Shown here one piece after another: positions 7,765 through 58,794 of a stretch of 64,000 bases of DNA. Source of the stretch: an uncultured Actinomycetes bacterium (lineage in GTDB: Bacteria > Actinomycetota > Coriobacteriia > Coriobacteriales > Atopobiaceae); contig ONMP01000003.1 of NCBI GenBank assembly GCA_900318935.1, positions 18,358-82,357 of the forward strand. Direction: 5' to 3'. The translations under genes were made by a program, and so were the position numbers. Under the pieces are notes generated by a model that did no database searches, was not told where the DNA came from, and saw nothing but the letters and a program-made list of their open reading frames with translations. Within the stretch, counting starts at the first letter, position 1; each line of letters opens with the position of its first letter.

Positions 7765-7922
7765 ACATTAGGGCGTACGCAAACCGGCGCGTGAATGACC
7801 CCGTGGTGGCTATCCCGAGGTTTAATATTGCGGTCCCGTCTGTCCTTGTCGCAAATCGTGCTACTATGGTTTGGCTGTATACGGAAATCGGTTGGAAACA
7901 ATCAAAGACAGAGAGAGGTCGT

Positions 7923-9269: not shown

Positions 9270-9272
9270 CAC

Positions 9273-12166: not shown

Positions 12167-12176
12167 GGGAGGGTCC

Positions 12177-35658: not shown

Positions 35659-36942
35659 ATGGCAAGCAAGGATCGCGCCATACTGCACGTGGACATGAAC
35701 TGCTTCTATGCGAGTGTCGAGATGGCCGAGAGGCCAGAGCTCAGGGGAAAGCCTGTCATCGTGGGTGGTGACGAGGAGAGCCGTCATGGTATCGTGCTCA
35801 CAGCGAGCTATCCGGCCAAGCGCAGGGGTGTAAAGACGGGCTCGGCTCTCTGGGAGGCGAGGCTTGCCTGTCCCGATGCGATTGTCGTGCCGCCGCGCTA
35901 CGGCCTGTACATGAGGTATTCGCGTCTGGCTCGGGAGATGTACAACCAGTACACCGACCTTGTGGAGCCGTTCGGGCTCGACGAGTGCTGGCTGGACGTT
36001 ACGGACGTTGTTGGGCACGCCTGTGCTCGGCAGGCGGAGTCGCTTGCGAGGGAGATTTCCGATCGGGTGAAGAGCGAGCTTGGCTGTACGGTGTCGATAG
36101 GTGTCTCTTGGAACAAGATTTTCGCGAAGTTTGGCAGCGACTACCGCAAGCCCGACGCCATGACCTCCGTTACGCGTGAGAACTATCGTGAGCTCGTGTG
36201 GCCTGCCAAGGCGGGCGACCTTCTCTACGTAGGTCCCGCCACCTCGCGAAAGCTCGCCCTCATGGGCATCCGTACCATCGGTGAACTTGCCTGCGCTGAC
36301 GAGTATGCCGTGCGGCGGCTTCTTGGCAAGCCTGGGCAGGTGGTGCAGACGTTTGCGCGTGGGCTCGATGACTCGCCCGTGCGAACCTACGAGCCGGGTC
36401 TCGGTGACATAGCGCATGTGGTGAAGGGTGTGGGGAACGGCATTACCTGCCCCTTTGACGTGGAGGACGTGACTACGGCCAAGCAGGTCGTGTGGCTCAT
36501 GGGGGAGTCGGTGGCGCAGCGTCTCCGGGCTCTGGGACTCGCCGCTCGAACCGTCGCCGCGTGGGGGCGTGACTTTGAGACCTTGGTGTCGCGCTCCCGT
36601 CAGGCGACGTTCGACAGGCCCACCCAGCTTACGGGGGAGATCTGCTCGGTGGCGGCGAACTTGCTCGTGGCCGACTGGGACTTTGCGTACGGGGAGAAGC
36701 TGAGGGGTGTCGGCGTGCGGGCCTCGAACCTGGTTCCCGCCGAGCAGTGGGTTCAACTCGACATCTTTGGGGAAGAGGGGAGGCGTCAGAGCCTGCTCGA
36801 CCTCGACCGTTGCGTGGATGAGCTGCGCAGGCGCTTCGGCAACCACGCCGTGCGGCGTCTCTCCGAGCTCAGCGACTCGAGGTTGGTCACGATCGATCCC
36901 GAGAGGGACAACGTGGTACACCCGGTGAGCTTCTTTGCGTGA
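35659..36942 (+). CDS. dinB: Y-family DNA polymerase IV
   Basis: SD aaggagg. The sequence reads [31 protein letters not shown]...[16 protein letters not shown]. Confidence 0.9.
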
Positions 36943-37058
36943 TGGAGGTGTCCTTCTTGCATGGCGGTCGGTCGGTTGTGTGTCGGCGTGTGTTAGGATG
37001 GATGCGCTATCTGACGGCGAGGTTCAGTCCGAGCACAAAGAGCGCACAGGGGAGAGGT

Positions 37059-37814
37059 ATGTTAAAAATTGCCATTTATGGTAAGGGTGGCATTGGCAAG
37101 TCCACCATTACCAGCAACCTTGCGGCGGCGTTTGCCGTGCAGGGGAAGCGCGTTATCCAGATCGGCTGCGATCCCAAGGCCGACTCCACCATCAACCTGC
37201 TGGGCGGCGAGCCGCTCATGCCCGTTATGAACTACCTGCGTGAAAACGACGACGATCCGCAGACGATCGACGAGATCGCGCGCGAGGGCTTCGGTGGCGT
37301 GCTCTGCATCGAGACGGGTGGACCCACGCCTGGCCTCGGTTGTGCGGGGCGCGGCATCATCGCTACGTTCAACCTGCTTGAGGATTTGCGTCTCTTTGAG
37401 ACATGGCAGCCTGACGTGGTGCTCTACGACGTGTTGGGCGACGTGGTGTGCGGTGGCTTTGCCGCGCCCATTCGCGAGGGTTACGCCGAGAAGGTCCTCA
37501 TCGTGACCTCCGGCGAAAAGATGGCCCTCTACGCGGCGAACAACATTCATACCGCCGTGCAGAACTTTGAGGATCGCGGCTACGCGCGTGTGGCGGGCAT
37601 CATTCTCAACCATCGCAACGTACCCGATGAGACGGCCAAGGTGCAGGCGTTCGCTCGCGAGCATGAGCTTGCGATCGTGGCCGAGATTCCGCGTTCGGAT
37701 GAGATCAACCACTTCGAGGACAGGGGCCAGACGGTGATAGAGGGCGACCCCACGCTTCCCGTGAGCCAACGATTCCTCGACCTTGCGACGCGCCTGCTCG
37801 CCGGCGAGGTGTAG
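37059..37814 (+). CDS. NifH/BchL/CfbC-family ATPase ([4Fe-4S] 'iron protein'-like reductase component), 251 aa
   Basis: SD gggagagg. The P-loop is [10 protein letters not shown] and the switch I motif is GCDPKADST. Both cluster cysteines are present ([16 protein letters not shown]). Confidence 0.85.
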
Positions 37815-37815
37815 C

Positions 37816-40269
37816 ATGGCTTGCCCGCATATGGTGTCGCGGCAACGCGGCGCAGAGGAAATGGCCTCCTCCGTGACTCGCTCGGCGGTGGGGTTCACCG
37901 CCGCAGAGCTCGCGCGGCGCGGTATCGACGACCTGCCTGACGAACTCGTGTCGAATCGTCATCTCATCTACAGTTCGCCCGCCACGCTCGCATTCAACTC
38001 GCCTGGCGCGGAGGGTTTTGGCGTCAAGCGCGCTGGCCTTGCGATTCCCGGTTCGGTGATGTTGCTCGTGGCGCCGGGCTGCTGTGGACGCAACACCTCG
38101 CTCGTGAGCGACATGCCCGCCTATCGCGACCGCTTCTTTTACCTCAACATGGACGAGACCGACATCGTGACGGGCCGTCACCTGCGCAAGATTCCGGCAG
38201 CGGTGGAAGAGGTCGTGCGCAGCCTACAGACGCCGCCGTCGGTCGTGATGATCTGCATCACCTGTGTGGACGCGCTGCTCGGCACCGACATGGAGCGCGT
38301 GTGTCGCAAGGCGGAGGAGCGCGTGGGCCTGCCCGTGCGCCCGTGCTACATGTATGCCCTCACGCGTGAGGGACGACGGCCTCCGATGGTGCACGTGCGG
38401 CAGAGTATGTATTCGCTGCTTGAGAAGCGCCCGAAGCGGGCGACCTCGGTCAACGTGCTGGGCTTCTTTGCACCGCTCACGGACGAATGCGAGCTGTATC
38501 GATATCTGCGCGATCTGGGGGTAAAGAAGGTCCGCGAGGTGTCGCGCTGTGCCGACATCGACGAGTTCCAGCACATGGCCGAGGCGAACTTCAATCTCGT
38601 GCTGCATCCCGAGGCGCGCTTTGCGGCGGCGGACCTAGAGGAGCGGCTGGGCATCCCGAGTATCGAGCTGACACGCTTGTACCAGCTTGATCGCATTCGC
38701 ACGCAGTACCGGGCGCTGGGACAGGTGCTCGGTGCGACCTTTGATGACGAGGCTGACTATGCTGCGGCCGAGGCTTCCGTCGAGCGGTTCCGCGCCATGG
38801 CGCCGGATGTGACGTTCGCGGTGGGGGAGTGCCTCAACGCCGACCCCTTCGAGCTGGCGGTCGCGCTCGTGCGCTATGGGTTTGCGGTGCGCGAGGTATT
38901 CGGTACCATCCAGGCCGAGAACTTCGTCTTTGTCCGGCGGCTGGCCGAGCTGAGCCCTGAGACGCGCGTCTACTCAAACATGGAGCCCACGATGATTCAC
39001 TACGACGCGGCGACGTGTCCGGTGGACGTTGCGCTGGGCAAGGATGCGGCATGGTATCACCCCGAGGCGGCGGGCCTGGCATGGAATTCCGACGTGCAGC
39101 CGTATGGCTATGCTGGCGTGCGGCAACTCTTTGAGGAGCTGCTAGGTCTCGTTGTTCCTGGTGAGCCGCACGTCGCGAAGACGCCATCCACTGCTCAGTC
39201 GATGAACCCCAACGGACTCTCTTCTCAGGCGCGTCCCGCCGCTGCGCGGGGTCTGCGCAAGTTCCTCACGCCCTTCGCGCCCGATCAGTCTGGCGCGGTG
39301 AGCGTTCTGTACGAGCTTGGTGGCATCGTGGTTGTCTGTGACGCGGGTGGTTGCACGGGCAACATCTGCGGCTTCGACGAGCCGCGCTGGCATTCTGCGC
39401 GCAGTGCGGTCTTTAGTGCCGGCCTGCGCGACATGGATGCCATTCTTGGCCGCGACGACAAGCTCGTGGACGAGTTGGCCGATGCCGCGGAAAAGATCAA
39501 AGCGAACTTCGCGGCCATCGTCGGCACGCCCGTTCCCTCGGTCATCGGGACGGATTACCGTGCCCTGCGACGTATGAGTGAGCGCCGGGCGGGACTGCCC
39601 ACCATCACCGTCGACACGACGGGCATGGAACTCTACGACGTCGGAGCGAGCAAGGCGTATGTGGCCTTGTTTGACCGCTTTGCCACCGAAGAGCTACCAG
39701 CCGAGCCAGGGCGCGTACTCGTGCTGGGAGCAAACCCCCTCGACCTCGGATGCATCCCTCCCGACGAACGGCGCCTCGCATTCGAAGACGTACGCACCGC
39801 TTCGTCTGCGGAGAAAGCCTTCGTCGTGGCACCCTCGGGCCTTGCGGCTGCGAAACTCCTCAACGAGCGCTTTGGCACACCTTACAAGGTGGGCTTTACT
39901 GCGGGAATGCTAGAAACCATGCTTGGCGACGCGCTCCTCGAATCCTTGCGGTGCGTTCGCGACAAGCGGGTGCTGGTGGTGCAGCAGCAGGTGATGGCTA
40001 ACGCCCTGCGCGACGAGGCGTTGGCAGCAGGTGCCGCCGAAGTGGTGTGCGCCACGTGGTTCATGCTGTCGCCCGAACTGGCGCGGCCTGGCGACCTGCG
40101 CCTGCGCGAGGAGGCTGACTTCGCGCGCCTGGTAGCCGAAGGCGGCTACGACGTGCTGATTGGTGACCCCACGCTCTGGCGACTCGTGCCGGAGTTTGCG
40201 GGTGAGACCATTGACCTGCCGCAGTTCCCTGTCTCCGGCAAGCTCGCGGCAAAGAAGGACCCGCGATGA
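37816..40269 (+). CDS. Fused two-domain nitrogenase component-1-type (NifD/K/E/N-like) protein, 817 aa
   Basis: The ATG lies 1 nt after the stop of the nifH-like gene. The N-half has APGCCGRNTS and ICITCVDALLGTD. The C-half has VVVCDAGGCTGNICGFDEPRW and AIVGTPVPSVIGTDY. Both halves have the Oxidored_nitro-like layout. Confidence 0.75.
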   Translation: MACPHMVSRQRGAEEMASSVTRSAVGFTAAELARRGIDDLPDELVSNRHLIYSSPATLAFNSPGAEGFGVKRAGLAIPGSVMLLVAPGCCGRNTSLVSDMPAYRDRFFYLNMDETDIVTGRHLRKIPAAVEEVVRSLQTPPSVVMICITCVDALLGTDMERVCRKAEERVGLPVRPCYMYALTREGRRPPMVHVRQSMYSLLEKRPKRATSVNVLGFFAPLTDECELYRYLRDLGVKKVREVSRCADIDEFQHMAEANFNLVLHPEARFAAADLEERLGIPSIELTRLYQLDRIRTQYRALGQVLGATFDDEADYAAAEASVERFRAMAPDVTFAVGECLNADPFELAVALVRYGFAVREVFGTIQAENFVFVRRLAELSPETRVYSNMEPTMIHYDAATCPVDVALGKDAAWYHPEAAGLAWNSDVQPYGYAGVRQLFEELLGLVVPGEPHVAKTPSTAQSMNPNGLSSQARPAAARGLRKFLTPFAPDQSGAVSVLYELGGIVVVCDAGGCTGNICGFDEPRWHSARSAVFSAGLRDMDAILGRDDKLVDELADAAEKIKANFAAIVGTPVPSVIGTDYRALRRMSERRAGLPTITVDTTGMELYDVGASKAYVALFDRFATEELPAEPGRVLVLGANPLDLGCIPPDERRLAFEDVRTASSAEKAFVVAPSGLAAAKLLNERFGTPYKVGFTAGMLETMLGDALLESLRCVRDKRVLVVQQQVMANALRDEALAAGAAEVVCATWFMLSPELARPGDLRLREEADFARLVAEGGYDVLIGDPTLWRLVPEFAGETIDLPQFPVSGKLAAKKDPR

Positions 40270-42674
40270 GCGCGACGACGCGGCGATACCGCGTCTACGG
40301 CATCGTGCAGGGTGTGGGCTTTCGCCCCACGGTGGCTCGCCACGCCATGACGGCGCGGGTCACGGGCACGGTCGCAAACAAGGGCCCGTACGTGGAGGTG
40401 TACGCCCAAGGCACGCCCGCCGAGCTTGACAGCTTCGAGGGCTTGCTGCGCACTCAGCCACCCCGTCGTGCGGCCATCCTCAAGCTCGACGTGCGACCCG
40501 CTCCGGACGCACCGACGTTTGCGGACTTCTCCATCGTCGAAAGCGAAAAGACTGCAGGCGAGATATTCATATCCCCCGATATCGCCATCTGCGAAGACTG
40601 CAAGCGCGAGCTGTACGACCCTGCGGACCGTCGCTACCTGCACCCCTTCATCAACTGCACGTGTTGCGGTCCTCGACTGACCATCCTTGACTCGTTGCCC
40701 TACGATCGCGTGCGTACGAGCATGGCCGAGTTTCCGATGTGTCCTACCTGTGCGCATGAATACCACGATCCCGCGAGCCGGCGCTACGACGCGCAGCCCG
40801 TGTGCTGTAATGAGTGCGGGCCCGAGGCGTATCTGCTCGATCGCCCCGAACGCGGGCGTGACGCCATCACTGAGGCGCGGCGCATTATCGCGGCTGGTGG
40901 TGTTGTCGCTGTCAAGGGCATAGGTGGCTTCCATCTGTGCTGCGACGCCACGAACCCGGCGGCTGTCGGGCTGCTTCGCGAGCGCAAGCATCGCTCGGTG
41001 AAGCCCTTTGCCGTCATGGCTGCTGACCTCGATGTTGCTCGTCGCGAGTGCCATGTCAGTCCACTTGCGGAGGAGATTCTTGACGGCCATCAGAAGCCGA
41101 TCCTGCTCCTCCCGCGTCGCACCGCTTCAGGCCAAGCCCGGGAGGCCGACCCGTCAAAGGGACAGGTCAGCCTCCTCTCGACTTCGAATGGTCCCGTCCC
41201 AATGTCCCTCGTGTGTGACGCCGTTGCGCCTGGCAATCCCAAGCTCGGGATCATGCTGCCCTATGCGCCTCTGCAGCTGCTGCTCTTCTCGTATCCCGAC
41301 GGTATCGAGATGCCTGATTGCCTGGTGATGACGAGCGCTAACGAGTCCGGCGCTCCCATCTGCCGCGATGACGAAGACGCGCGGCGTGAGCTGGCTCCGC
41401 TAGCCGATGCGATTCTCTCGCACGACCGCTTGATTCGCGTGCGTGCCGACGACACCGTCATGGATCTCTTTGAAGAGAAGCCCTACATGGTGCGTCGTTC
41501 GCGGGGCTGGGCGCCTCTGCCCTTCGTGCTGGGCAAACGACTCGATGCGCGCGTGCTGGCCGTGGGCGGCGAACTCAAGAACGCGTTTTGCGTGGGTGTG
41601 GGCGACCTGCTCTATCCGTCCCCTTATGTCGGCGACTTGGCTGATGTGCGGACGGTGGACGCCCTGCGCGAGACGATTGCCCGCTTCCTCGCGCTGCTCG
41701 AGACGACGCCCGAGGTCGTGGCCTGTGACCTGCATCCGGGCTACAACTCCACTGTGGTTGCGCGCGTACTGGCCGACGAGCTGGACGTGCCGCTCGTGCA
41801 GGTCCAGCACCACTATGCACACGTCGCTGCGTGCATGGCTGAGAACGATGTCGAGGGTCCGGTGATTGGCGTGTCCTTCGATGGAACGGGCTACGGCGAA
41901 GACGGCACCGTGTGGGGTGGCGAGATTATGCTGGCCGACGCGCGAGGTTATGAGCGGCTGGACCACATCGCGCCTTTCCCGCAGGCGGGTGGCGACCTTG
42001 CCGCGCGGGAGGGCTGGCGTGTGGCGGTAGGCATGCTCGGCGCGTTTGTTGGCGACGGTGCGCAAGGGAACACCCAGTGCTGCCACGACCCCGCCGCTTT
42101 GGCTGAACAACTCGGCCTTTGCGCCGCAGCCGAGGCGCGCGTGGTTCTTGCGATGATCGATCGGGGCATCAACACGGTGACTTCCACGAGCGCGGGGCGT
42201 CTCTTTGATGCCGTGAGCGCTGTGCTGGGCATCCGACGGGTCTCGACCTTCGAGGGAGAGGCCGCCATCCAGCTGCAGTTTGCCGCCGAGTGCGGACGCA
42301 CGCCCGAGTTGACGCTTCCCGATTTCTCGCAGACCGACGAGCTGTTCCGCTGGATCGTCGAGCGCCGCCTCGCGGGCGACGATCCTGACCTGCTGGCCTA
42401 TGCCTTTCACGTGGGTTTGGCGTCGTTCGTCGAGGCGCGGTGCATAGCGGCTCGCGAACAAACCGGCGTCAACGTGGTGGCGCTCACAGGCGGCTGCTAT
42501 CAGAACTTGCTGCTGCTCGAACTCTCAGTTGAGCGGCTCAGGCGGCGTGGCTTCAATGTCCTCACCCACAGCCTGTTACCTCCCAATGATGGAGGCATAG
42601 CGGTGGGTCAGGCCCTCGTTGCCGCAAGAAGACGAGGCATCCAAAGAACGTCATTGTTCGAATCGACTGAATAG
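40266..42674 (+). CDS. hypF: Carbamoyltransferase HypF
   Basis: ATGA overlap with the upstream gene. It has an acylphosphatase-like N-terminus (YGIVQGVGFRP) and two CxxC-x18-CxxC zinc fingers. YrdC-like (VKGIGGFHLCCDA) and Kae1-like domains follow. Confidence 0.92.
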   Translation: MSATTRRYRVYGIVQGVGFRPTVARHAMTARVTGTVANKGPYVEVYAQGTPAELDSFEGLLRTQPPRRAAILKLDVRPAPDAPTFADFSIVESEKTAGEIFISPDIAICEDCKRELYDPADRRYLHPFINCTCCGPRLTILDSLPYDRVRTSMAEFPMCPTCAHEYHDPASRRYDAQPVCCNECGPEAYLLDRPERGRDAITEARRIIAAGGVVAVKGIGGFHLCCDATNPAAVGLLRERKHRSVKPFAVMAADLDVARRECHVSPLAEEILDGHQKPILLLPRRTASGQAREADPSKGQVSLLSTSNGPVPMSLVCDAVAPGNPKLGIMLPYAPLQLLLFSYPDGIEMPDCLVMTSANESGAPICRDDEDARRELAPLADAILSHDRLIRVRADDTVMDLFEEKPYMVRRSRGWAPLPFVLGKRLDARVLAVGGELKNAFCVGVGDLLYPSPYVGDLADVRTVDALRETIARFLALLETTPEVVACDLHPGYNSTVVARVLADELDVPLVQVQHHYAHVAACMAENDVEGPVIGVSFDGTGYGEDGTVWGGEIMLADARGYERLDHIAPFPQAGGDLAAREGWRVAVGMLGAFVGDGAQGNTQCCHDPAALAEQLGLCAAAEARVVLAMIDRGINTVTSTSAGRLFDAVSAVLGIRRVSTFEGEAAIQLQFAAECGRTPELTLPDFSQTDELFRWIVERRLAGDDPDLLAYAFHVGLASFVEARCIAAREQTGVNVVALTGGCYQNLLLLELSVERLRRRGFNVLTHSLLPPNDGGIAVGQALVAARRRGIQRTSLFESTE

Positions 42675-42684
42675 GAGATACATC

Positions 42685-42897
42685 ATGTGTGTGGGACTTT
42701 CGGCAAAGGTGGTGCGCATCCAAGACGGTACGGCCATCGTAGACGCTTCTGGTGCGCGACGCGACGTGTCGGTGGCGCTGCTCGACGAGGTTGAGCCCGG
42801 TGATTACGTCATGGTTCATGCGGGCATCGCCATCGCAAAGATTACCGACGAAGACGAGCACGAGACGGACGAGCTACTGGAGGCGTTGTACGCATGA
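42685..42897 (+). CDS. hypC: HypC/HybG/HupF-family chaperone
   Basis: SD aggaga. It has the canonical N-terminal MC(V)G and is 70 aa long. Confidence 0.85.
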   Translation: MCVGLSAKVVRIQDGTAIVDASGARRDVSVALLDEVEPGDYVMVHAGIAIAKITDEDEHETDELLEALYA

Positions 42898-43946
42898 GCG
42901 GACAAGAACGGCAGACGGCTGCGCAGATTCTTGCGGCCTACGATGGGCCGCCGCTGCGCATTATGGAAGTCTGCGGCACCCATACTCATGAGATATTCCG
43001 TCTCGGCATTCGCAAGCTGCTGCCGTCCCAGGTGGAACTCATCAGTGGGCCGGGATGTCCGGTGTGCGTGACACCAGTCGGTTTTATCGACGAGGCAATC
43101 TGGCTGGCCGAACACGGGGTGACCATTACGACCTTCGGTGACCTTGTGCGCGTGCCGGGGACGAGCGGGAGCTTGGCCTCTGCGCGTGCGGCTGGCGCCC
43201 GCGTGCAGGTGGTCTACTCGCCGCTTGATGCCGTGGCTTATGCGCGCGAGCACGAGGGCGAACAGGTGGCGTTTCTTTCTGTGGGCTTCGAGACTACCGT
43301 CCCGGCCGCATGCCTGGCTGCAGAGCAGGCCGTTGCCGAAGGGCTGTCCAACTTCTCGCTACTCACCGCAAACAAAACCATGCCCAACGCATACGCGGCG
43401 CTGCGCGACTCGGCTGATGTCTTCCTGTATCCCGGCCACGTCCACGCCATTATCGGCACACAGCTCTGTGAGGATCTCGCACAGCAGGGCGTGAGCGGCG
43501 TGTTGGCGGGATTCACGGCAAAAGAGCTGGTCACGGCACTCGCGGTGGCGGTGCGCAAAGCTGGCGAGGGTGAGCCGTTCTTCGTGAATGCCTATCCTCG
43601 CGTGGTCCGTCCCGAAGGAACGCCCGTCGCTGTTGCGCTCATAAACAAGCTCATGGAGCCCTGCGACACCGAATGGCGTGGCTTGGGCGTTATCCCCCAG
43701 TCTGGCCTGCGTCTGCGTGATGAGTATGCGGCTGTGGACGCGCGCCGGGTCCATGGCATGCCGCACATCGAGGGGCGTGCGAATCCGGCGTGTCGTTGCG
43801 GCGAGGTGTTGCGAGGCGCGTGCAAGCCGAGTGATTGCCCGCTCTTTGGGCGTGGTTGTACGCCCCAGCATCCTGTCGGTGCGTGCATGGTCTCGGGCGA
43901 GGGGTCTTGTTCGGCCTATTATCAATACGGAGGTGACCTGCTGTGA
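42894..43946 (+). CDS. hypD: Hydrogenase maturation factor HypD
   Basis: ATGA overlap with hypC. It has MEVCGTHTHEI and GPGCPVCVTP. The C-terminal Cys cluster is CPLFGRGCTPQHPVGACMVSGEGSC. Confidence 0.92.
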   Translation: MSGQERQTAAQILAAYDGPPLRIMEVCGTHTHEIFRLGIRKLLPSQVELISGPGCPVCVTPVGFIDEAIWLAEHGVTITTFGDLVRVPGTSGSLASARAAGARVQVVYSPLDAVAYAREHEGEQVAFLSVGFETTVPAACLAAEQAVAEGLSNFSLLTANKTMPNAYAALRDSADVFLYPGHVHAIIGTQLCEDLAQQGVSGVLAGFTAKELVTALAVAVRKAGEGEPFFVNAYPRVVRPEGTPVAVALINKLMEPCDTEWRGLGVIPQSGLRLRDEYAAVDARRVHGMPHIEGRANPACRCGEVLRGACKPSDCPLFGRGCTPQHPVGACMVSGEGSCSAYYQYGGDLL

Positions 43947-44959
43947 GTGCGATGGAAGCAGGAAAGGTGACGCTGGCGATGGGTGCTGGCGGCAAACAAA
44001 CGTCGGAGCTTATCGAGCGCGTGTTTGCGCGGCGGTTTGCGAGTCCGCTGCTCACTGCCGACGATGCGGCAGTACTCGAGCCCCCGCGTGGCAAGATGGC
44101 CATGTCTACGGACGGCTTCATCGTCTCGCCGTCGTTCTTTGCGGGCGGCAACATCGGCAAGCTTTCGATTTGTGGCACGGTCAACGATCTCGCTTGCATG
44201 GGTGCCCGTCCGCTCTATCTGACCTGCGGCTTCGTGATCGAAGAGGGCTATCCACTTGACAAACTCGAGCAGATTGCCGATGCGATGGCCGCGACAGCTG
44301 CCGAGGTGGGTGTGACGCTCGTGGCGGGCGATACCAAGGTCGCAGGCCGCGGGCAGGTGGACGGCGTGTTCATAACCACGACAGGCGTGGGCGAGGTCAT
44401 GGAAGGCGCATCTCCCGAAGGAAGCAAGGCGGCTCCTGGTGACACGATTATCGTAACGGGCGATGTGGGGCGGCATGGTTGCACGATATTGCTCGAGCGT
44501 GACGACTTCGGCATCGAGGCGGACGTGACCTCAGACTGTGCACCGTTGTGGGCAAGCGTGGAGGCCATGCTTGAAGTGACGCGTGACGTGCACGTGATTC
44601 GTGATGCGACGCGTGGCGGTGTGGGGACGGTGCTCTACGAGATTGCTGGTCAGAGCGATGTGGGCGTGGAGCTCGATGCGGCATCGATTCCGGTGGACCC
44701 TGCAGTCGGTGGCGTGTGTCGGATGCTTGGGCTGGAGCCGCTCTACCTTGCGTGCGAGGGTCGGCTTGTGGTCATCGCGCCACAAGAACATGCATCGGAG
44801 CTGGTTGAGGCGCTGCGGTCATGTCCGTATTCGGGTGGTGCTGCCATCATCGGGCGCGTGACGGCCGATCGTCCTGGTTGGGTGGTGCTCAATACCGAGG
44901 TTGGCACGCAGACGCTTCTGCCCCAGCCGACCGGCGAGCTGCTTCCGCGCATCTGCTAA
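43943..44959 (+). CDS. hypE: Hydrogenase maturation factor HypE
   Basis: GTGA overlap with hypD; an alternative ATG exists at 43952. It has an AIR-synthase-like fold motif (GTVNDLACMGARP) and the C-terminal PRIC motif. Confidence 0.9.
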   Translation: MSAMEAGKVTLAMGAGGKQTSELIERVFARRFASPLLTADDAAVLEPPRGKMAMSTDGFIVSPSFFAGGNIGKLSICGTVNDLACMGARPLYLTCGFVIEEGYPLDKLEQIADAMAATAAEVGVTLVAGDTKVAGRGQVDGVFITTTGVGEVMEGASPEGSKAAPGDTIIVTGDVGRHGCTILLERDDFGIEADVTSDCAPLWASVEAMLEVTRDVHVIRDATRGGVGTVLYEIAGQSDVGVELDAASIPVDPAVGGVCRMLGLEPLYLACEGRLVVIAPQEHASELVEALRSCPYSGGAAIIGRVTADRPGWVVLNTEVGTQTLLPQPTGELLPRIC

Positions 44960-45167
44960 GAGCCTTGGGGACGAGGTGCTGAGGCCGTAGTATAGGTTGC
45001 TGGGAGATGCCAAGGGTGCCACCTCTAGTGCTGCCCTTGGCTCCGTAACGTTAGGTTAGCACCCTTCCAGGCTTGGGACCCAAACCTGCGTCCGTCTAGC
45101 TGTGATACGGCGGGTTGCGATTCCTCAGCCAGCCATTGCTCTACTCACGTCCAAGAGGGGAGGACTT

Positions 45168-46670
45168 ATGCTCAAGCGACTTGGTCCATCGGTGACAACG
45201 ACGGGTGAGGCTACTTCGGTGGCTCTCTTTCCTTCCAAGTTGGAGTTTAACCCACCCGCCCACGGTGTATGGAATATCGTCCATGTGGGCATGCTTGTGC
45301 CGGAAGCGCACCAAATATACGTGTGTGCCGTCAACTGCATGCGTGGTGTGGTGCTCACGGCGTCCGAAATGGGTGCGTCTGAGCGATTCTCGTGCGTGGT
45401 CCTCAAGGAGTCAGACATCGTACGCGGCACCGTTGAGCAGGTGACGCTTGAGGGTATTGCCGACGTACTGCACAAGCTCGAGGCTCGTGAGGCGTTGCCG
45501 CCTTGTGTTATCGTGTTTCCGGTATGTACGCATCACTTCCTTGGCGTGAGCATGGCACGCGTGTATCGCGAGCTGCGGCATGAGTTCCCCGGTGTGGACT
45601 TCGTCGAGGCTTACATGGATCCCATCATGAAGCGGCGCCTGAGCCCCGACGCTCGTCTGCGCAAAGCGATGTTTGACCCGTTGGAGCCATGCGAGGCCGA
45701 CAATCGCCTTGTTGCTTTGCTGGGGGGCGACTTTGCGATTGATGCAGATTGTGAGTTGCGCGGCGTGCTCAGGGAGTGCGGCTATAGCGTTGCTGAGGTC
45801 CAGGACTGCAAAACCTACGCCGAGTTCAAGGGTCTTGCCCGAGCTGTAACGCTGATCTGCACGTATCCAGGTGCGCAATACGGGGTTGAGAAGCTTGCGC
45901 GGCGTTTGGGGCGTCGTTACCTCTACTTGCCATCAAGCTTCGACTACGAAGAGATAGCTCGCCAGTACGTCATGCTGCGCGATATGCTTGGTGGTGACGA
46001 TTTGCCCATCGACGTGCCGTTTTCCAATGTAGCCAGCCCAACCACAAGCGTCACCAGCCCAAACGTGAGCGCGGACGCATCAGGGTCCCCCATGCCGTGT
46101 ACCGTGCGTCAGGGTTCCTGCGGGGAAGTCTCATGTTCTTGCATGTCGGTTCACCGCATCAGTGCTGCTGATTCGCAAACCGACGTTTTTGATAAGTCTG
46201 CAGAGGTGGCTCGCTGTGAGGAGGAGCTTGCCAAAACCTTTGACGCTGTCGGGGATGCTCCCATAGCCATTGATGCCTCGGCGCACCCTCGTCCTCTTGG
46301 TCTGGCCCGACTGTTGGTGGAGCACGGATTCAACGTGCGGGAGGTCTACCTTGACGCTGTGACCGATGAGGATGCACCTGCCTTGACTTGGTTGCAGACT
46401 CATGCGCCTGAAGTGCAGCTCTCGTCCATCGTGTTGCCCGAGCTGCGCATTGCCTCGCGTGAGCGCCCTGAGCGGACGCTCGCTATTGGCCAAAAAGCAG
46501 CATGGTTTTGCGGCACGCAGCATTTTGTAAACATAGTCGAAGGTGCGGGACTATGGGGTTATGCGGGCATACGTGCCATGGCGAGGTTGATGCGTGAGGC
46601 ATGGGCAACTCCGAAGGATGCGCGCGACCTTGTGCCGCGCAAAGGACTCGGTTGTGCGAGCTGTTTCTAG
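45168..46670 (+). CDS. Third nitrogenase component-1-type (Oxidored_nitro-like) protein with a Cys/Ser-rich insertion
   Basis: SD gaggggagga. It has IYVCAVNCMRGVVL and VFPVCTHHFLGV. The insertion reads SPTTSVTSPNVSADASGSPMPCTVRQGSCGEVSCSCMS. Same strand as hypE, 208 nt downstream of it. Confidence 0.6.
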   Translation: MLKRLGPSVTTTGEATSVALFPSKLEFNPPAHGVWNIVHVGMLVPEAHQIYVCAVNCMRGVVLTASEMGASERFSCVVLKESDIVRGTVEQVTLEGIADVLHKLEAREALPPCVIVFPVCTHHFLGVSMARVYRELRHEFPGVDFVEAYMDPIMKRRLSPDARLRKAMFDPLEPCEADNRLVALLGGDFAIDADCELRGVLRECGYSVAEVQDCKTYAEFKGLARAVTLICTYPGAQYGVEKLARRLGRRYLYLPSSFDYEEIARQYVMLRDMLGGDDLPIDVPFSNVASPTTSVTSPNVSADASGSPMPCTVRQGSCGEVSCSCMSVHRISAADSQTDVFDKSAEVARCEEELAKTFDAVGDAPIAIDASAHPRPLGLARLLVEHGFNVREVYLDAVTDEDAPALTWLQTHAPEVQLSSIVLPELRIASRERPERTLAIGQKAAWFCGTQHFVNIVEGAGLWGYAGIRAMARLMREAWATPKDARDLVPRKGLGCASCF

Positions 46671-46902
46671 CCGGGCGGCCGACTCAATAGTCCTTTGTGG
46701 GTCCTTGAGGCCGATTTCTCTCAAGGTAATACAGTAAAGATATGGGCATTCTGAAAGATGGTTCCCTAAACAGCCTGGGGACGCGTCTAGTAGCGGCTCT
46801 GGGATGCTCCATGCGGGGTACGCATTTTGCTCGTGACAAGTCACATCAAAATTAGTGTACCTTTGCGACTGAAAGTTTTACAAAACCCCAGTTGATGGAA
46901 AC

Positions 46903-46959
46903 TTTTCAGGTTCAAATGCGCACTGTGTATTTTACACAGTGCGCATTTGAACCTGAAAA
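46903..46959. repeat. 27-bp perfect inverted repeat with a 3-nt loop between convergent genes
   Basis: ttttcaggttcaaatgcgcactgtgta-ttt-tacacagtgcgcatttgaacctgaaaa. It is AT-rich relative to the surroundings. Confidence 0.9.
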
Positions 46960-47078
46960 ATAACTTTTATCTGGGCTTTTGCCGTCTCCACAAAACCAAA
47001 GTGTCACTAATGCATTGCATGGCTTCTCAGGGAACGTGACCATGGCATACATGGAGGCCAAACTGGTGCGCGCGGTGG

Positions 47079-48146
47079 TCACAAAACGCCGTGAGAAGCA
47101 CCTCGCGGCATGCCGCCGGGCGACAGCTCCCGTAGCAACGCATTGCGATCACGTTTTTCCTCGGTGTTGTCGAGCCGTTGTATCCATTCGGTGGTATCGA
47201 CGCCAAAAACCGTGCTGGCGCAGCCAAGCAGAAGCCGCGTAAACCGATCGAGGCTCTCGCCATCGCTCAGGTCCTCCTTGGTTGCTGGAAATATGATTTT
47301 GCCGCTTGAGGCGAGCTGGGCATTGCGCAGCTTGTCGTCCACGACCTTGCCTCTGACCTGCTCATACTTCGCGGCCAAATCTCTACGAGCTTCCTCAACA
47401 TCCTTGGCGTCAGCCGAACAGACGTGTTGCGCAGCTTTTATGAGTCCATCGAGGTCCAGGTGGTCCTCTTCACCGTCATAGTTGATGCCGAGCGGCGCAA
47501 AGGAGAATTGCAGATCTGGATAGCGAAATCTGGGAGCGCTGCCGTCCGGCAGCGAGTACATGGTCGCAAGCAGGGCCTCTGGCGGAGACACCGCGTGGTC
47601 ACATACGTATCTCAGCGCCTCCCGGGCGAGCATGACACCTCGTAATCCGGGCACCAAGGCAAGGTATCCTCGGATGTCGTCAACGCTTGTCACGGGGCTC
47701 AACTCCATGGTGACATTGCCATTCAGGGGGTCGAGCGCGTTGCGTGAAAAATGTCCGCACAGCTCATATCCCAACATCACTAGCGTGGGTAACGAGAACA
47801 CTTCGGCGAGTTGCGCGAACAGCAATTCAGGGCACACGATGCAGGTGTTGGCGTCAACACGCAGTATCGAACCATTAGGGAGTTTTCGCGTGATGATATG
47901 CGAATCGACGGTCGACAGCCGAACGCGGTCGTTGCGATTCCCGATCAGAATGTGCAGGTGTTGGGCCTGGCTGGGCTGTGGCCACCTCCATACGTTCTTT
48001 GCGAACTCACGCGCGCACCAGCGCTTGCTTGTCCATGTGGACGGCTTTGCCAATTGAGCTGTATCCAGCTCTGAAAGCTCGACACTCTCAGCGCGGAGAA
48101 TGCGTACCACATCGAGTGCCGAAAGATGGCAAAGCGTAACACCCAT
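47079..48146 (-). CDS. Hypothetical protein with a DUF559/Vsr-like endonuclease-core motif
   Basis: A 355-aa ORF with ordinary amino-acid composition. The motif FAPLGINYDGEEDHLD resembles the (I/V)E.DG..H core of DUF559 proteins. The N-terminus resembles AbiEi-type actinobacterial proteins, but weakly. Confidence 0.45.
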   Translation of the reverse strand: MGVTLCHLSALDVVRILRAESVELSELDTAQLAKPSTWTSKRWCAREFAKNVWRWPQPSQAQHLHILIGNRNDRVRLSTVDSHIITRKLPNGSILRVDANTCIVCPELLFAQLAEVFSLPTLVMLGYELCGHFSRNALDPLNGNVTMELSPVTSVDDIRGYLALVPGLRGVMLAREALRYVCDHAVSPPEALLATMYSLPDGSAPRFRYPDLQFSFAPLGINYDGEEDHLDLDGLIKAAQHVCSADAKDVEEARRDLAAKYEQVRGKVVDDKLRNAQLASSGKIIFPATKEDLSDGESLDRFTRLLLGCASTVFGVDTTEWIQRLDNTEEKRDRNALLRELSPGGMPRGASHGVL

Positions 48147-50530: not shown

Positions 50531-51724
50531 TCAGGCCAGCGACTTCCGAAGCGGGCGCACGCTGCGCTCGAGGGTACCTGTCATGCGCGCGATGACGATT
50601 CCGTAGTTGGTGAAGGGCACGCCTTGGTCCTGCGCGCACTTCATGCGGTAGCGCACCTCGCGCTCGCTTGTCATGCAGCCGCCGCAATGAATGACGAGGG
50701 CGTAGCGGGATAGGTCTTCCGGAAACTCCCGCCCGGAGCAGGTCTCAATCTCGAGGTTTGCTCCGGTGTGCGCTCGCAGCCAGCGAGGTATCTTCACCGT
50801 GCCGATGTCGTTGCACTGCCGATGGTGCGTACAACCCTCGGCCATGAGCACCCGATCACCGTCACGCAGCCCGTCCACGGCGGCGACCCCAGCCTCGGCT
50901 GTCGCCAAGAAGCCCTTATAGCGAGCCATGAGTATCGAGAACGACGTCAGAGGCACGTCTTCGGGCACGATGGATGCCACAACTGCGAAGGCCTGACTGT
51001 CGGTGACGACGAGGGCGGGCGGTGCCGAGAGGTGCTCGAGCGTAGAAGCTAGCTCGGTCTCGCGACAAACCAACGCCGTCGCCCCGGCGTCAAGGACATC
51101 TCGGATGGCCATTTGCTGGGGCAGGATGAGACGGGCCTTTGGCGCGGACTCGTCGATGGGGCACACGAGCACCACGGCCGCGCCGGGTGAGATGAGGTCG
51201 CCCAAGAGGCGGTGGCCGGGGTCTTCCTTTGGTGCGAGCGATCCGAGGCGTTCCTTCAACTCGTGGATGCCCTCACCAGTAAGGGCGCTCACGTGGAGAG
51301 CATTCGGCGTGGGTTGTACGCCGTTGGATAGCAGGTCGCTCTTGTTGAGCACAATCACGTAGGGCAGGAGCTTCTCCTCAAACATGCCAACGAGCTGTCG
51401 GTCAACCTCCCCGAGGCCGCGCGTGGCGTCCACCACGAGCACGGCGATGTCGCAGCGGTTGAGCGTCTGCTTGGTGCGCAACACGCGCTTCTTGCCGAGC
51501 ATCCCTTCGTCGTCGAATCCGGGTGTATCTATGATGACGACCGGACCGAGCGGCAGCAGCTCCATGGCTTTCTGCACGGGATCAGTGGTCGTGCCAGCCA
51601 CGTCAGACACGACAGCGAGGTCCTGCCCGGTAACGGCGTTCACAACGCTCGACTTGCCCGCGTTACGACAACCAAAGAACCCGATGTGGACGCGTTCGGC
51701 CGAGGGCGTGGCGTTGAGGCTCAT
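50531..51724 (-). CDS. hydF: [FeFe]-hydrogenase H-cluster maturation GTPase HydF
   Basis: ATG at 51724 follows aaaaggag. The GTPase motifs are GCRNAGKSS, DTPG and NKSD. The C-terminal cluster motif is EGCTHH...IHCGGCM. Confidence 0.85.
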   Translation of the reverse strand: MSLNATPSAERVHIGFFGCRNAGKSSVVNAVTGQDLAVVSDVAGTTTDPVQKAMELLPLGPVVIIDTPGFDDEGMLGKKRVLRTKQTLNRCDIAVLVVDATRGLGEVDRQLVGMFEEKLLPYVIVLNKSDLLSNGVQPTPNALHVSALTGEGIHELKERLGSLAPKEDPGHRLLGDLISPGAAVVLVCPIDESAPKARLILPQQMAIRDVLDAGATALVCRETELASTLEHLSAPPALVVTDSQAFAVVASIVPEDVPLTSFSILMARYKGFLATAEAGVAAVDGLRDGDRVLMAEGCTHHRQCNDIGTVKIPRWLRAHTGANLEIETCSGREFPEDLSRYALVIHCGGCMTSEREVRYRMKCAQDQGVPFTNYGIVIARMTGTLERSVRPLRKSLA

Positions 51725-52018
51725 GGTGGCTCCTTTTCCGTATGCAATGCGCATGATTGTATCCCAGGTTTGAGGCGGGTCGCTCCTCACGTCCCATGTT
51801 TCGCACGTGTGACAGGCTCGGGTGCGGCGCGTTGAGGGTGGTATAACTACCTCCATGGATACTGGTACGCACATAACGTCGACAGCACGCTCCCAAGGGT
51901 TCAGCCTGCTGCTTCTTTAGGCGCTTCCGCATGCAAGCGGTTGCGCCCATAACCCCTTTTTGCAGACGTGTTTTGTGTTTGAATGTATCCCCTTAGCCCC
52001 GAAACGGAGAAGAATCCC

Positions 52019-58242: not shown

Positions 58243-58261
58243 GTTCTGCTCCTTCCTCGTA

Positions 58262-58349
58262 TGGTGCCCCCGCCGAGATTCGAACTCGGACGTCCGCTTG
58301 GGACAACGGCTTCTGAGACCGTTGCGTCTGCCATTTCCGCCACGGGGGC
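58262..58349 (-). tRNA. tRNA-Leu (anticodon CAG), 88 nt, CCA encoded
   Basis: Folded by hand. Acceptor stem GCCCCCG/CGGGGGC, D-arm GCG-N11-CGC, anticodon stem ACGGT/GCCGT with loop CTCAGAA. It has a long variable arm (GTCC..GGAC) and a T-arm CCGAG-TTCGAAT-CTCGG, ending in ACCA. Confidence 0.9.
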
Positions 58350-58365
58350 GCTTGTTCGCGCGACG

Positions 58366-58401
58366 AAAAAAGGCGCGGGCTGGATAGCTTCCAGTCCGCG
58401 C
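58366..58401 (-). terminator. Strong intrinsic terminator on the minus strand, 16 nt upstream of tRNA-Leu
   Basis: On the minus strand: GCGCGGACTGGA-agcta-TCCAGCCCGCGC followed by CTTTTTT. Confidence 0.7.
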
Positions 58402-58794
58402 ATCTCGCACTCGCGTGATTGTTGGGCTACGACGATCCTCCCCAGGCGTCGTGGACTGGTAGCATGAAGGGTGCCAGCGTTAGGCTGGCTTCAAGCAGCA
58501 GATAATAATGTTTGAGCGCTTGACGGTTCACAATCAGTCCTTCCCAATCGTCGCTAAGGACGCTAGCACAAGGTCGGCACCCCGTCAACCCTTCTTGCCG
58601 TCAGTTTTTCGGGAGGCTGGCCATACGAACGAGCGGAGTGTACCCATTCCAGTGCTGCATATGAGGGTGGCTCCAGATTCGCTCGTCCATTAGTCCGCTG
58701 TGAGTTTCGTGTCGTGCGTCATTGCTAGATGCTTGGTGGGTAATAGCTGCTACAGTACGTAACGCGTATCTTCCTTCAAACGAAAGGAGCGAAA

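Follow-up and report, generated by a model that had tools for sequence, protein, structure and literature searches.

A nitrogenase-like gene pair coupled to hypFCDE in a gut Coriobacteriia genome and its possible link to nickel-free Fe-CN/CO chemistry

Organization of the locus

The window, which is the whole 64 kb stretch of DNA that was analyzed, comes from a gut Coriobacteriia genome. NflH, NflDK, HypF, HypC, HypD, HypE, and a further component-1-like protein are encoded at positions 37059-46670. The features of this region and its downstream flank are as follows:

37059..37814, plus strand: nflH1, NifH-type Fe protein, an ATP-dependent [4Fe-4S] reductase (Fer4_NifH)
37816..40269, plus strand: nflD1K1, fused double component-1 protein, NifEN-like, 817 aa (Oxidored_nitro, two stretches)
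40266..42674, plus strand: hypF, carbamoyltransferase with acylphosphatase, two Zn fingers, YrdC, and Kae1-like domains (TIGR00143)
42685..42897, plus strand: hypC, Fe(CN)2CO chaperone (PF01455, TIGR00074)
42894..43946, plus strand: hypD, [4Fe-4S] scaffold for Fe(CN)2CO assembly (TIGR00075)
43943..44959, plus strand: hypE, carbamoyl dehydratase with a C-terminal PRIC (TIGR02124)
45168..46670, plus strand: nflD2, D-like subunit of a second NFL module (Oxidored_nitro)
46881..46981, no strand: long inverted repeat with a core of 27 perfect bp, between convergent genes (z = -8.2)
50531..51874, minus strand: hydF, [FeFe]-hydrogenase H-cluster maturation GTPase (TIGR03918, HydF_dimer, HydF_tetramer)

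The ATG of nflH1 is preceded by a Shine-Dalgarno sequence, AGGGGAGAGG. Its TAG stop codon (37812-37814) is followed by the ATG of nflD1K1 at 37816, with GAGGTG upstream, and the TGA of nflD1K1 overlaps the ATG of hypF in cgATGAgc (40266-40269). Ten nucleotides separate the hypF stop codon from the hypC ATG at 42685, which has GGAG upstream, and the next two pairs overlap as ATGA at 42894 (hypC/hypD) and as GTGA at 43943 (hypD/hypE). The start of nflD2 at 45168 lies 208 nt beyond the hypE stop codon. The open reading frame coordinates and start/stop overlaps claimed by the original prediction match the sequence at every junction. The long inverted repeat is likely a bidirectional terminator that closes the operon. 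An Rfam scan of the whole window at gathering thresholds for riboswitches and regulatory RNAs returned a tRNA-Leu alone, and in a permissive Rfam scan of 36400-47200 the terminator hairpin drew miRNA-like noise and nothing else was matched. Consensus scans for promoters and terminators produced counts no higher than those in shuffled sequence.

The nitrogenase-like proteins

NflH1 matched Fer4_NifH (PF00142) with 298 bits and aligned over its full length with the C. pasteurianum NifH structure 1cp2 (E 1.4e-74). It fell below the cut-offs for true nitrogenase NifH (TIGR01287, 303 vs 394 bits) and for CfbC (NF033200, 295 vs 402 bits). The P-loop GKGGIGKS, switch I DPKADST, both [4Fe-4S] cysteines (Cys97 and Cys132 in the Av numbering), and VCGGF are all kept. 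The alignment thus bears out the intact P-loop, switch I, and cluster cysteines that had been claimed for this gene, and the same motifs are present in 82 of 82 related loci.

NflD1K1 scored 163 bits against Oxidored_nitro (PF00148) in two stretches, above the gathering score. In Clostridium, Dorea, and Anaerobutyricum, it is represented by two genes, D1 and K1. Its AF2 model (pLDDT 86.5, pTM 0.88) had as best PDB fold match the naturally fused NifEN of Geobacter metallireducens (9i0g, E 4.5e-27), and NifEN was its best match by sequence as well. As with NifEN and NifH, a NifH-type ATPase is encoded directly upstream. Three of the four cysteine ligands of the inter-subunit [4Fe-4S] cluster can be aligned: the invariant C90, C150, and C513 correspond to NifE C62, NifE C124, and NifN C44. 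The position of NifE C37 is unaligned, and C89 or C147, both near-invariant, could take the place of this ligand. NflD1K1 differs from NifEN in its low identity (~16%) and in the complex-cluster cysteine (NifE C250, NifD C275), whose position is occupied by N, H, or S across the NflDK family. It also stayed far below the nifE and nifEN equivalog cut-offs (TIGR01283, 103 vs 505; NF011047, 73 vs 1229). In the NFL protein, we identified no obvious motif for Fe(CN)2CO binding. Neither nifB nor any other nif gene was found near nflD1K1, whose partner genes are instead hypFCDE, and no Radical_SAM match, the mark of a NifB-type synthase, was obtained among the window open reading frames scanned. Among the related loci, hydE alone is a conserved gene of the radical SAM type.

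The Hyp proteins

All four Hyp proteins exceeded their equivalog cut-offs and carried their catalytic motifs, the latter in agreement with the original prediction. HypF scored 667 bits vs a cut-off of 466 (TIGR00143), and its acylphosphatase, two zf-HYPF, YrdC, and Kae1-like domains were all found. HypC (PF01455, 84 bits; TIGR00074, 71.5 vs 48) has the N-terminal MC, within MCVG, and the conserved His. HypD (TIGR00075, 364 vs 193 bits) has GPGCPVC and the C-terminal Cys cluster, and HypE (TIGR02124, 411 vs 252 bits) ends in PRIC directly before the stop codon. Identity to the E. coli proteins ranges from 29% to 45% for the four (HypF 37%, HypD 45%, HypE 42%). These motifs are kept across the related loci: P[RK][IVL]C at the HypE C-terminus in 69/69, GPGCP[VI]C of HypD in 73/73, MC of HypC in 68/68, and the HypF Zn fingers in 72/73. 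To our knowledge, HypCDEF has so far been encountered only as the Fe(CN)2CO assembly line of [NiFe]-hydrogenases.

A second NFL module and the hydrogenase maturases HydE and HydF

The last gene of the cluster, nflD2, reached 30.3 bits against Oxidored_nitro (cut-off 28.6). Its product shares 74-75% identity with NflD2 of two related loci (L005 and L081) and 43-45% with NflD2 of Clostridium and Anaerobutyricum. The family-invariant W35, N36, H39, C53, C57, C120, H122, and C-terminal GLGCxSC are kept, and there is a lineage-specific insertion of ~62 aa. A PDB sequence search with NflD2 matched no solved structure. Most relatives carry a complete second module, TM1266-NifH2-NflD2-NflK2, frequently with HydF and HydE, and the duplicated D/K-like pair recalls that of NifDK and NifEN. 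In the window, NifH2 and NflK2 are absent and nflD2 is the remnant of this NifH2-NflD2-NflK2 module. The gene had been described as component-1-like, and its status as a remnant had been missed.

The window also contains a true HydF (TIGR03918, 536 bits vs a cut-off of 326), encoded 3.9 kb downstream of the cluster at 50531-51874 on the minus strand. This gene was overlooked in the earlier analysis of the sequence. A link to the cluster is possible; here the gene lies outside the operon. A HydF homolog is found in or beside the cluster at ~20 related loci, and module 2 is linked to TM1266, HydE, and HydF at about 20-30. In Ruthenibacterium, HydE and HydF flank module 2, and Hyp is absent. Two other loci (L030 and L084) are 13-gene superclusters on one strand, with the order TM1266-HydF-HydE-NifH2-D2-K2-NflH1-D1-K1-HypFCDE. 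Elsewhere, module 2 adjoins a FecCD / Peripla_BP_2 ABC importer of the heme, siderophore, or corrinoid type. HydG was not found to be conserved in the cluster neighborhood, and a motif scan of the window for the catalytic subunit of [FeFe]-hydrogenases gave no match. The idea that Hyp and NFL together stand in for HydG was considered and rejected as unsupported: for each of the eight acetogens with hyp genes, HydG or a HydG-like gene is reported.

Distribution of the cluster

In a gene-neighborhood survey of the kind that the original prediction had proposed, at least 583 species genomes gave a match. Of the loci taken from them, 69 could be evaluated, and 66 of these, from several phyla, have NflH, NflDK, HypF, HypC, HypD, and HypE in colinear order. 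The genes form one tightly coupled unit, as the original prediction had argued. The cluster occurs in Actinomycetota (Atopobiaceae), Bacillota (Lachnospiraceae and Clostridium; Clostridia and Negativicutes), and Lentisphaeria. At 27 loci, the stop codon of NflDK and the start codon of HypF can overlap by 4 nt, and in most of the others the genes are ≤25 nt apart. Minimal clusters in Schwartzia and Mogibacterium consist of just NflH, NflDK, and HypFCDE. The flanking genes differ and are unrelated between loci, and in the related loci module 1 has no conserved neighbors for tetrapyrrole synthesis or other biosynthesis. The adjacency of nif-like and hyp genes is not due to chance. A lack of conservation in relatives had been named as grounds for giving up the idea; since the adjacency is strongly conserved across phyla, the idea is not refuted on these grounds.

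[NiFe]-hydrogenase genes in the window and in cluster-bearing taxa

The window was searched for [NiFe]-hydrogenase subunits, the maturation protease, HypA, and HypB with Pfam over essentially all long open reading frames and with a motif scan, and none was found. A tblastn search of the window with E. coli HycE, HycG, HycI, HypA, and HypB gave nothing better than E = 0.1. The absence of [NiFe] genes, endopeptidase, hypA, and hypB from the window, as originally described, was thus confirmed by three kinds of scan. Homologs of HycE, HycG, HycI, HypA, and HypB were likewise not found within ±10 kb of the cluster in 84 loci.

The [NiFe] status of cluster-bearing taxa was taken from published hydrogenase censuses based on similarity searches, and the strains and isolates in these censuses are other than those whose loci we examined. 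Anaerobutyricum hallii DSM 3353 carries the cluster (L051). For an Anaerobutyricum isolate, the accessible part of a published census gives two NifH matches and [FeFe] groups only, with no [NiFe]-hydrogenase listed. A Dorea longicatena isolate is credited with [FeFe]-hydrogenases only; its two NifH genes are eight loci apart, which agrees with the Dorea loci L014 and L021. The eight clostridial acetogens censused have a group 1a [NiFe]-hydrogenase, and a single hypCDEF set is listed in 7/8. In C. ljungdahlii (L015) and C. drakei (L019), the hypCDEF set sits inside the NFL cluster. With a group 1a enzyme present and the NFL-linked hypCDEF as the only such set listed, Hyp in acetogens may just serve ordinary hydrogenases, and the NFL-linked Hyp proteins there probably do also serve the normal hydrogenase. 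C. carboxidivorans has a second hypCDE set adjoining its hydrogenase and hypAB, and this extra set suggests that the HypF-linked set has a job of its own.

Comparison with known systems

The association of NFL and Hyp genes is not new. Dos Santos et al. (2012) noted NifHEN-like genes beside hydrogenase maturation genes in Coprococcus catus and other Firmicutes and proposed an accessory role in hydrogenase maturation (PMC3464626). Their clade has two cysteines in the D/E-like part, one in the K/N-like part, and two linked NifHEN-like copies (PMC3464626). The window matches this clade in its Cys pattern and hyp adjacency; the second copy is partial here (NflD2 alone) and complete in most relatives. 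The statement in the original prediction that no characterized system has this architecture therefore needs amendment, as the association itself has been published (PMC3464626), and it stands insofar as our literature search for a characterization of a nif-like/Hyp system found nothing past Dos Santos et al. (2012). A 2026 review of NFL proteins describes the superfamily as still largely of unknown function and does not mention Hyp.

The window proteins resemble those of the HypABCDEF-plus-endopeptidase system in every catalytic motif of HypF, HypC, HypD, and HypE. The locus differs from that system in having no HypA, HypB, large or small subunit, or protease, in the coupling of hyp to nitrogenase-like genes, and in occurring in taxa for which the accessible census data list no [NiFe]-hydrogenase. 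CfbCD (F430 synthesis), DPOR (BchLNB), and COR (BchXYZ) likewise pair a NifH-like ATPase with a component-1-like partner that has a reduced Cys ligand set and no complex-cluster ligand. However, NflD1K1 scored far below the cut-offs for CfbD (TIGR03282, 38.8 vs 268), BchB (TIGR01278, 41 vs 490), BchN (TIGR01279, 20.6 vs 420), and BchY (TIGR02015, 26.9 vs 425), and there are no tetrapyrrole genes near the cluster.

The methylthio-alkane reductase MarBHDK and isethionate reductase (Groups IV-C and IV-F) are also non-nitrogenase NFL systems of anaerobes with a NifH-like reductase. Mar contains P-cluster-like and L-cluster-like cofactors built by a NifB homolog (PMC13474568), whereas NflDK has three conserved cysteines and its cluster lacks a NifB-like radical SAM gene. 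The genes around the present cluster are hydrogenase maturases and not genes of sulfur metabolism. With the [FeFe]-hydrogenase maturation machinery (HydE, HydF, HydG, and the TM1266 regulator), the cluster shares true HydF, HydE, and TM1266 genes, which many of its versions contain or adjoin; the differences are that HydG was not found to be conserved and that the window gave no [FeFe] catalytic-subunit motif. NFL proteins are not known to take part in H-cluster synthesis, and the cofactors of NFL systems known to us are only iron-sulfur or nitrogenase-type clusters.

Discussion

We tentatively favor, at somewhat less than an even chance, a model in which an ATP-driven NifEN-like scaffold and HypFCDE act on a nickel-free Fe-CN/CO center. 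The operon would then be a self-contained, horizontally mobile unit that combines a nitrogenase-type electron-delivery couple with a complete cyanide/carbonyl-iron assembly line. HypF would carbamoylate the C-terminal Cys of HypE, HypE would dehydrate the carbamoyl group to thiocyanate, and HypC and HypD would put together the Fe-CN/CO unit. This unit would be passed to, or processed on, the NifEN-like protein with no completion by nickel; the absence of HypA, HypB, the large subunit, and the protease nearby suggests that it is not finished with nickel in a hydrogenase. NflH, as an ATP-hydrolyzing [4Fe-4S] Fe protein, would feed low-potential electrons to NflD1K1 in an ATP-dependent manner, and NflD1K1, with a predicted inter-domain [4Fe-4S] cluster, would be the scaffold or holder of the nickel-free center. 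The scheme would parallel the action of NifEN and NifH on the FeMo-co precursor, with HypFCDE in place of NifB. The second module of most relatives (NifH2-NflD2-NflK2, TM1266, HydE, and HydF) may be a downstream user or a parallel maturation branch.

The NifEN-like fold, the three of four cluster ligands, the intact Hyp motifs, the colinearity, and the minimal clusters count in favor of the scaffold model, as do the lack of HycE, HycG, HycI, HypA, and HypB homologs around the 84 loci, the cluster-bearing taxa with no [NiFe]-hydrogenase in the accessible censuses, and the second hypCDE set of C. carboxidivorans. The missing NifE/NifD complex-cluster Cys, the want of an obvious Fe(CN)2CO-binding motif, and the [NiFe]-hydrogenases of the acetogens count against it. 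A bolder version is doubtful. It holds that the cluster encodes a third kind of CO/CN-iron enzyme, a NifEN-type protein with a Hyp-built nickel-free Fe(CN)x(CO) center beside its [4Fe-4S] cluster, driven by an ATP-hydrolyzing NifH-type reductase, with NifH2-NflD2K2 likewise tied to HydE/HydF.

A somewhat unlikely alternative gives the NFL proteins an accessory part in the maturation of conventional hydrogenases, as ATP-driven reductases or scaffolds for CO/CN-ligated iron cofactors; such a role was put forward by Dos Santos et al. (PMC3464626). They might act, for example, in the anaerobic origin of the CO ligand or in a reductive step on HypCD or on HydF. The Hyp line ([NiFe] type) would be assisted by module 1 and the HydE/HydF line ([FeFe] type) by module 2, with ordinary [NiFe]- and/or [FeFe]-hydrogenases as recipients. 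The two paralogous modules are each tied to a different maturation machinery, module 1 always to HypFCDE. The HydF, HydE, and TM1266 genes often present in the cluster and the Hyp-free module 2 between HydE and HydF in Ruthenibacterium point to such an accessory rather than to a new end-user enzyme, and the two single-strand superclusters and the acetogens with both a [NiFe]-hydrogenase and NFL-linked hypCDEF as their listed set are in keeping with it. In the accessible census data, the cluster-bearing taxa covered (acetogens, Dorea, and Anaerobutyricum) also encode [FeFe]-hydrogenases. However, the CO and CN of the H-cluster come from HydG and not from Hyp (PMC9431212), and in genomes without a [NiFe]-hydrogenase according to the same accessible data, Hyp would have no known client. 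Olsenella umbonata, moreover, has group A2 and B [FeFe]-hydrogenases and no NifH match. Nor are NFL proteins used by E. coli and many other organisms in maturing both classes of hydrogenase.

It is improbable, in our view, that HypF/HypE chemistry (carbamoylation and dehydration to a thiocyanate or nitrile) acts on a non-protein substrate or builds a small-molecule or tetrapyrrole-type cofactor that the NFL pair would then reduce, much as DPOR, COR, and CfbCD do with tetrapyrroles. The characterized NFL enzymes with just the inter-subunit [4Fe-4S] cluster reduce tetrapyrroles (PMC13474568), the NflDK ligand set is similarly reduced, and module 2 elsewhere accompanies the FecCD / Peripla_BP_2 importer. 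Yet HypC and HypD, whose dedicated function is the assembly of CN/CO on iron, are never missing and keep their motifs intact, module 1 conserves no biosynthetic genes, and the CfbD, BchN, BchB, and BchY scores are far below cut-off. Finally, it is very unlikely that HypFCDE serve a [NiFe]-hydrogenase elsewhere with the nif-like genes as co-inherited neighbors of no mechanistic meaning: although [NiFe] absence in the source genome is seen over 64 kb alone and acetogens show that unlinked [NiFe] genes can rely on an NFL-linked hyp set, the colinearity across phyla, the recurring nif-like/hypF overlaps, the unrelated flanking genes, and the occurrence of the cluster in taxa without [NiFe]-hydrogenase in the accessible censuses all oppose this.

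In hundreds of anaerobes, whether of gut or rumen or acetogenic, the operon unites the HypCDEF line with an NFL system, often by translational coupling. Genetically tractable hosts include C. ljungdahlii and C. autoethanogenum. The operon may give rise to an organometallic cofactor or enzyme not known before, or it may contribute an ATP-dependent step that is still missing from the picture of hydrogenase maturation in anaerobes; a candidate here is the origin of the CO ligand. Either outcome, if true, would give the NFL superfamily a further functional class. Should the cluster encode a third kind of CO/CN-iron enzyme, nitrogenase and hydrogenase chemistry would be combined in one natural hybrid that is widespread in gut and rumen Firmicutes and Coriobacteriia.

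Gene content of the operon

The original prediction described seven genes, a nitrogenase-like (NFL) pair coupled to hypFCDE and a third component-1-like gene behind them, and these genes and their junctions were exact on re-check.

37059-37814, nflH, with its TAG stop at 37812-37814 and the following ATG at 37816
40266-40269, junction of the 817-aa fused double component-1 protein (NflD1K1) and hypF, where the TGA of the former overlaps the ATG of the latter
hypC, beginning 10 nt past the end of hypF
hypC/hypD and hypD/hypE, overlapping as ATGA and GTGA, respectively
45168-46670, nflD2, the last gene, beginning 208 nt past hypE
46881-46981, inverted repeat ending the operon, with 49-nt arms that are 84% complementary and a core of 27 perfect base pairs

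Pfam and NCBIfam searches identified the nflH product as a NifH-type Fe protein (Fer4_NifH, 298 bits) that scores below the NCBIfam equivalog cut-offs for both nifH and CfbC. It aligns over its full length with Clostridium pasteurianum NifH and keeps the P-loop, switch I, and both cluster cysteines. Two Oxidored_nitro regions were found in the second gene product by Pfam, and HypF, HypC, HypD, and HypE each far exceed their NCBIfam equivalog cut-offs. The inverted repeat is a probable bidirectional terminator. It sits between convergent genes and gives spurious matches to miRNA families in Rfam. No riboswitch was found for the operon.

The window was also said to lack hydrogenase genes, and this held: Pfam scans of long ORFs, a motif scan, and tblastn were all empty, with no match in the window to Escherichia coli HycE, HycG, HycI, HypA, or HypB as tblastn queries. 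Each Hyp protein belongs fully to its family, but the local gene set does not make up a [NiFe]-hydrogenase maturation operon. A true HydF, the GTPase of [FeFe]-hydrogenase H-cluster maturation, had been overlooked at 50531-51874 on the minus strand (TIGR03918, 536 bits), 3.9 kb downstream of the cluster. Homologous clusters elsewhere have HydF in or beside about 20 loci and HydE in or beside 12.

NflD1K1 resembles NifEN

About half of the loci share the fused NflD1K1 of the window, and D1 and K1 are separate in Clostridium, Dorea, and Anaerobutyricum. Its AlphaFold2 model is confident (pLDDT 86.5, pTM 0.88), and among PDB structures it matches the naturally fused Geobacter NifEN best (9i0g, E 4.5e-27), followed by NifDK, VnfDK, and NifEN chains. 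Sequence similarity is very low, with NifE matched only at about E 1e-9 to 1e-15. Three cysteines are invariant in the family alignments, C90, C150, and C513, and they align with NifE C62, NifE C124, and NifN C44, respectively, all of them among the residues that bind the [4Fe-4S] cluster between the NifEN subunits. The site of the complex-cluster ligand (NifE C250/NifD C275) is Asn, His, or Ser in the NflD1K1 family. The same cysteine pattern was given for a Coprococcus/Dorea clade by Dos Santos et al. (2012; PMC3464626). The closest working resemblance of the NflH/NflD1K1 system is to NifEN/NifH, but it falls outside NifEN, NifDK, CfbCD, DPOR/COR, and Mar.

The cluster is conserved across phyla

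Homologues of NflD1K1 number in the thousands, and with each species represented by one genome, at least 583 species proved to encode a relative. The best 80 loci were compared. They are from Atopobiaceae, Coriobacteriaceae, Olsenella, Lachnospiraceae (including Dorea, Anaerobutyricum hallii, and Faecalicatena), Clostridium (C. ljungdahlii, C. drakei, C. thailandense, and C. luticellarii), Schwartzia (Negativicutes), Mogibacterium, and one Lentisphaeria MAG. By tblastn with the window proteins, NflH-NflDK-HypF-HypC-HypD-HypE is on one strand and colinear in 66 of the 69 loci with sufficient flank. The nif-like/hyp adjacency on which the original prediction was built is therefore kept, and it is more than chance. 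In 27 loci the stop of the nif-like gene can overlap the hypF start by 4 nt, and in most of the remaining loci no more than 25 nt separate the two genes. The signature motifs of the Hyp proteins and NflH are intact in essentially all loci, the genes flanking the cluster vary, and minimal clusters hold NflH, NflD1K1, HypFCDE, and nothing more. NflH, HypD, and HypE of the window share 65-83% identity with their counterparts in Lachnospiraceae, which belong to another phylum, and this is consistent with transfer of the cluster as one unit.

The sole real departures from colinearity were two Oscillospiraceae/Ruminococcus loci (L058 and L059). There, hypE lies between nflD2 and nflK2, hypC and hypD come after nflD1K1, and hypF is absent within 10 kb.

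A second NFL module

Most relatives carry a second module after, or sometimes before, the hyp genes. It consists of a TM1266-family protein (TIGR03959), a second NifH with about 50% identity to the first one, NflD2, and NflK2, often accompanied by true HydF (TIGR03918) and HydE (TIGR03956). Two loci (L030 and L084) have a 13-gene supercluster on one strand, TM1266-HydF-HydE-NifH2-D2-K2-NflH1-D1-K1-HypF-C-D-E. The third component-1-like gene of the original prediction does have an Oxidored_nitro match, weak but significant, and it proved to be NflD2, part of this second module, which had not been recognized. NifH2, NflK2, and TM1266 have been lost from the window and from its closest relatives, L005 and L081. 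The whole Atopobiaceae group is without NifH2 and TM1266, and the slightly more distant Atopobiaceae L004 and L007 retain NflD2 and NflK2.

The window NflD2 has a Ser/Pro/Cys-rich insertion of about 62 aa (approximately 46071-46263) that is absent in all relatives, including L005 and L081 (74-75% identical). All family-invariant residues are retained despite it. The NflD2 family ends in an invariant GLGCxSC tail at the extreme C-terminus, a placement reminiscent of the C-terminal Cys of HypE.

The second module also occurs without Hyp. A Ruthenibacterium MAG has TM1266-FecCD-ABC-HydE-NifH-D2-K2-substrate-binding protein-HydF, and on another contig the ABC importer is its sole companion. The loci without hyp genes are as follows.

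L087, 5744-14979, second module between HydE and HydF, with a FecCD/Peripla_BP_2 ABC importer and TM1266
L088, 7401-13609, second module with the ABC importer alone

The first module pairs with Hyp and the second with HydE and HydF. Each of the two paralogous modules is thus tied to a different CO/CN-iron maturation machinery.

[NiFe]-hydrogenase in taxa with the cluster

Published censuses give a mixed picture. A Dorea longicatena isolate has only [FeFe]-hydrogenases of groups B and A2 and two NifH genes exactly eight loci apart (Welsh et al. 2025), the spacing found in our Dorea loci L014 and L021. For an Anaerobutyricum isolate, the portion of the census available gives two NifH matches and [FeFe] groups A1, A2, A3, and B, with no [NiFe]; the full cluster is present in A. 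hallii DSM 3353 (L051). In the survey of Di Leonardo et al. (2022), each of the eight clostridial acetogens encodes one group 1a [NiFe]-hydrogenase; HypA and HypB are absent in five of them, and seven have a single hypCDEF set. In C. ljungdahlii (L015) and C. drakei (L019), hypCDEF lies in the NFL cluster, and from gene order we infer that it is the single set under the locus tags of that study. An additional hypCDE accompanies the hydrogenase and hypAB of C. carboxidivorans, whose sole hypF is in the other set (Di Leonardo et al. 2022). From these censuses, the NFL-linked Hyp set probably works for an ordinary hydrogenase in taxa that have one. It is kept, with catalytic residues intact, in taxa without any reported [NiFe]-hydrogenase.

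Other features of the window

A complete Rnf operon and several other features were observed.

7791-12998 (+), rnfC, D, G, E, A, B (ferredoxin:NAD+ oxidoreductase)
51983-54652 (+), 889-aa fusion of a xylose-isomerase-like TIM barrel (AP_endonuc_2) and an AMP-binding (acyl-adenylate-forming) enzyme, followed by a MatE transporter gene
58262-58349 (-), tRNA-Leu(CAG), within the longest ORF called as an RtcB-like gene (57043-58410)
2459-4297 (-) and 2492-4510 (+), long ORFs overlapping on opposite strands, with a GC peak of 0.66

The Rnf complex may either supply or take up the low-potential electrons needed by NifH-type proteins. Because of the tRNA, the true RtcB start must be further downstream. 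The minus-strand ORF at 2459-4297 has a weak DDE transposase match.

Interpretation

The original prediction knew of no characterized system with this architecture, but one passage of Dos Santos et al. (2012) had already noticed this gene-cluster family, as NifHEN-like genes next to hydrogenase maturation genes in Coprococcus catus and other Firmicutes. No later characterization was found in the literature, and Hyp does not appear in a July 2026 review of NFL systems, where several NFL groups are given as of unknown function. The window cluster is a somewhat reduced additional member of the family noticed in 2012. Against characterized systems it is of the NFL kind, but its partner set is unprecedented.

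In the established chemistry of these families, HypF places a carbamoyl group on the C-terminal Cys of HypE, which dehydrates it to a thiocyanate, and HypC and HypD assemble Fe(CN)2CO. NifH-type dimers use ATP hydrolysis to drive electrons into the cluster between the subunits of a component-1-type partner. By analogy with NifEN/NifH, HypFCDE would take the place of NifB: the NifEN-like protein would receive the Hyp product or be the site of its processing, and NflH would provide the reducing power. We favor this tentatively, at somewhat below an even chance. It is the simplest reading because nickel-insertion proteins, a large subunit, and a protease are not linked and because minimal clusters exist. 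The prediction that Hyp supplies a nitrogenase-like scaffold is thus supported in part, by the tight, conserved coupling of the genes; the hand-over itself is conjectural.

The main alternative, that both NFL modules are accessory maturation factors for ordinary hydrogenases, is favored by the linkage to HydE, HydF, and TM1266 and by the acetogen data. It is somewhat less likely than the first reading. Against it, NFL proteins are dispensable for maturing either hydrogenase class in the best-studied organisms, and Hyp is left with no known client in genomes without [NiFe]-hydrogenase. A small-molecule or tetrapyrrole pathway seems improbable, and a meaningless adjacency is hardly credible given the conserved gene order.

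The function of the association between nif-like and hyp genes is directly testable. It is unlikely, on our estimate, that the nitrogenase-like protein carries a CO/CN-ligated iron center; if it truly does, the system could be categorically new.
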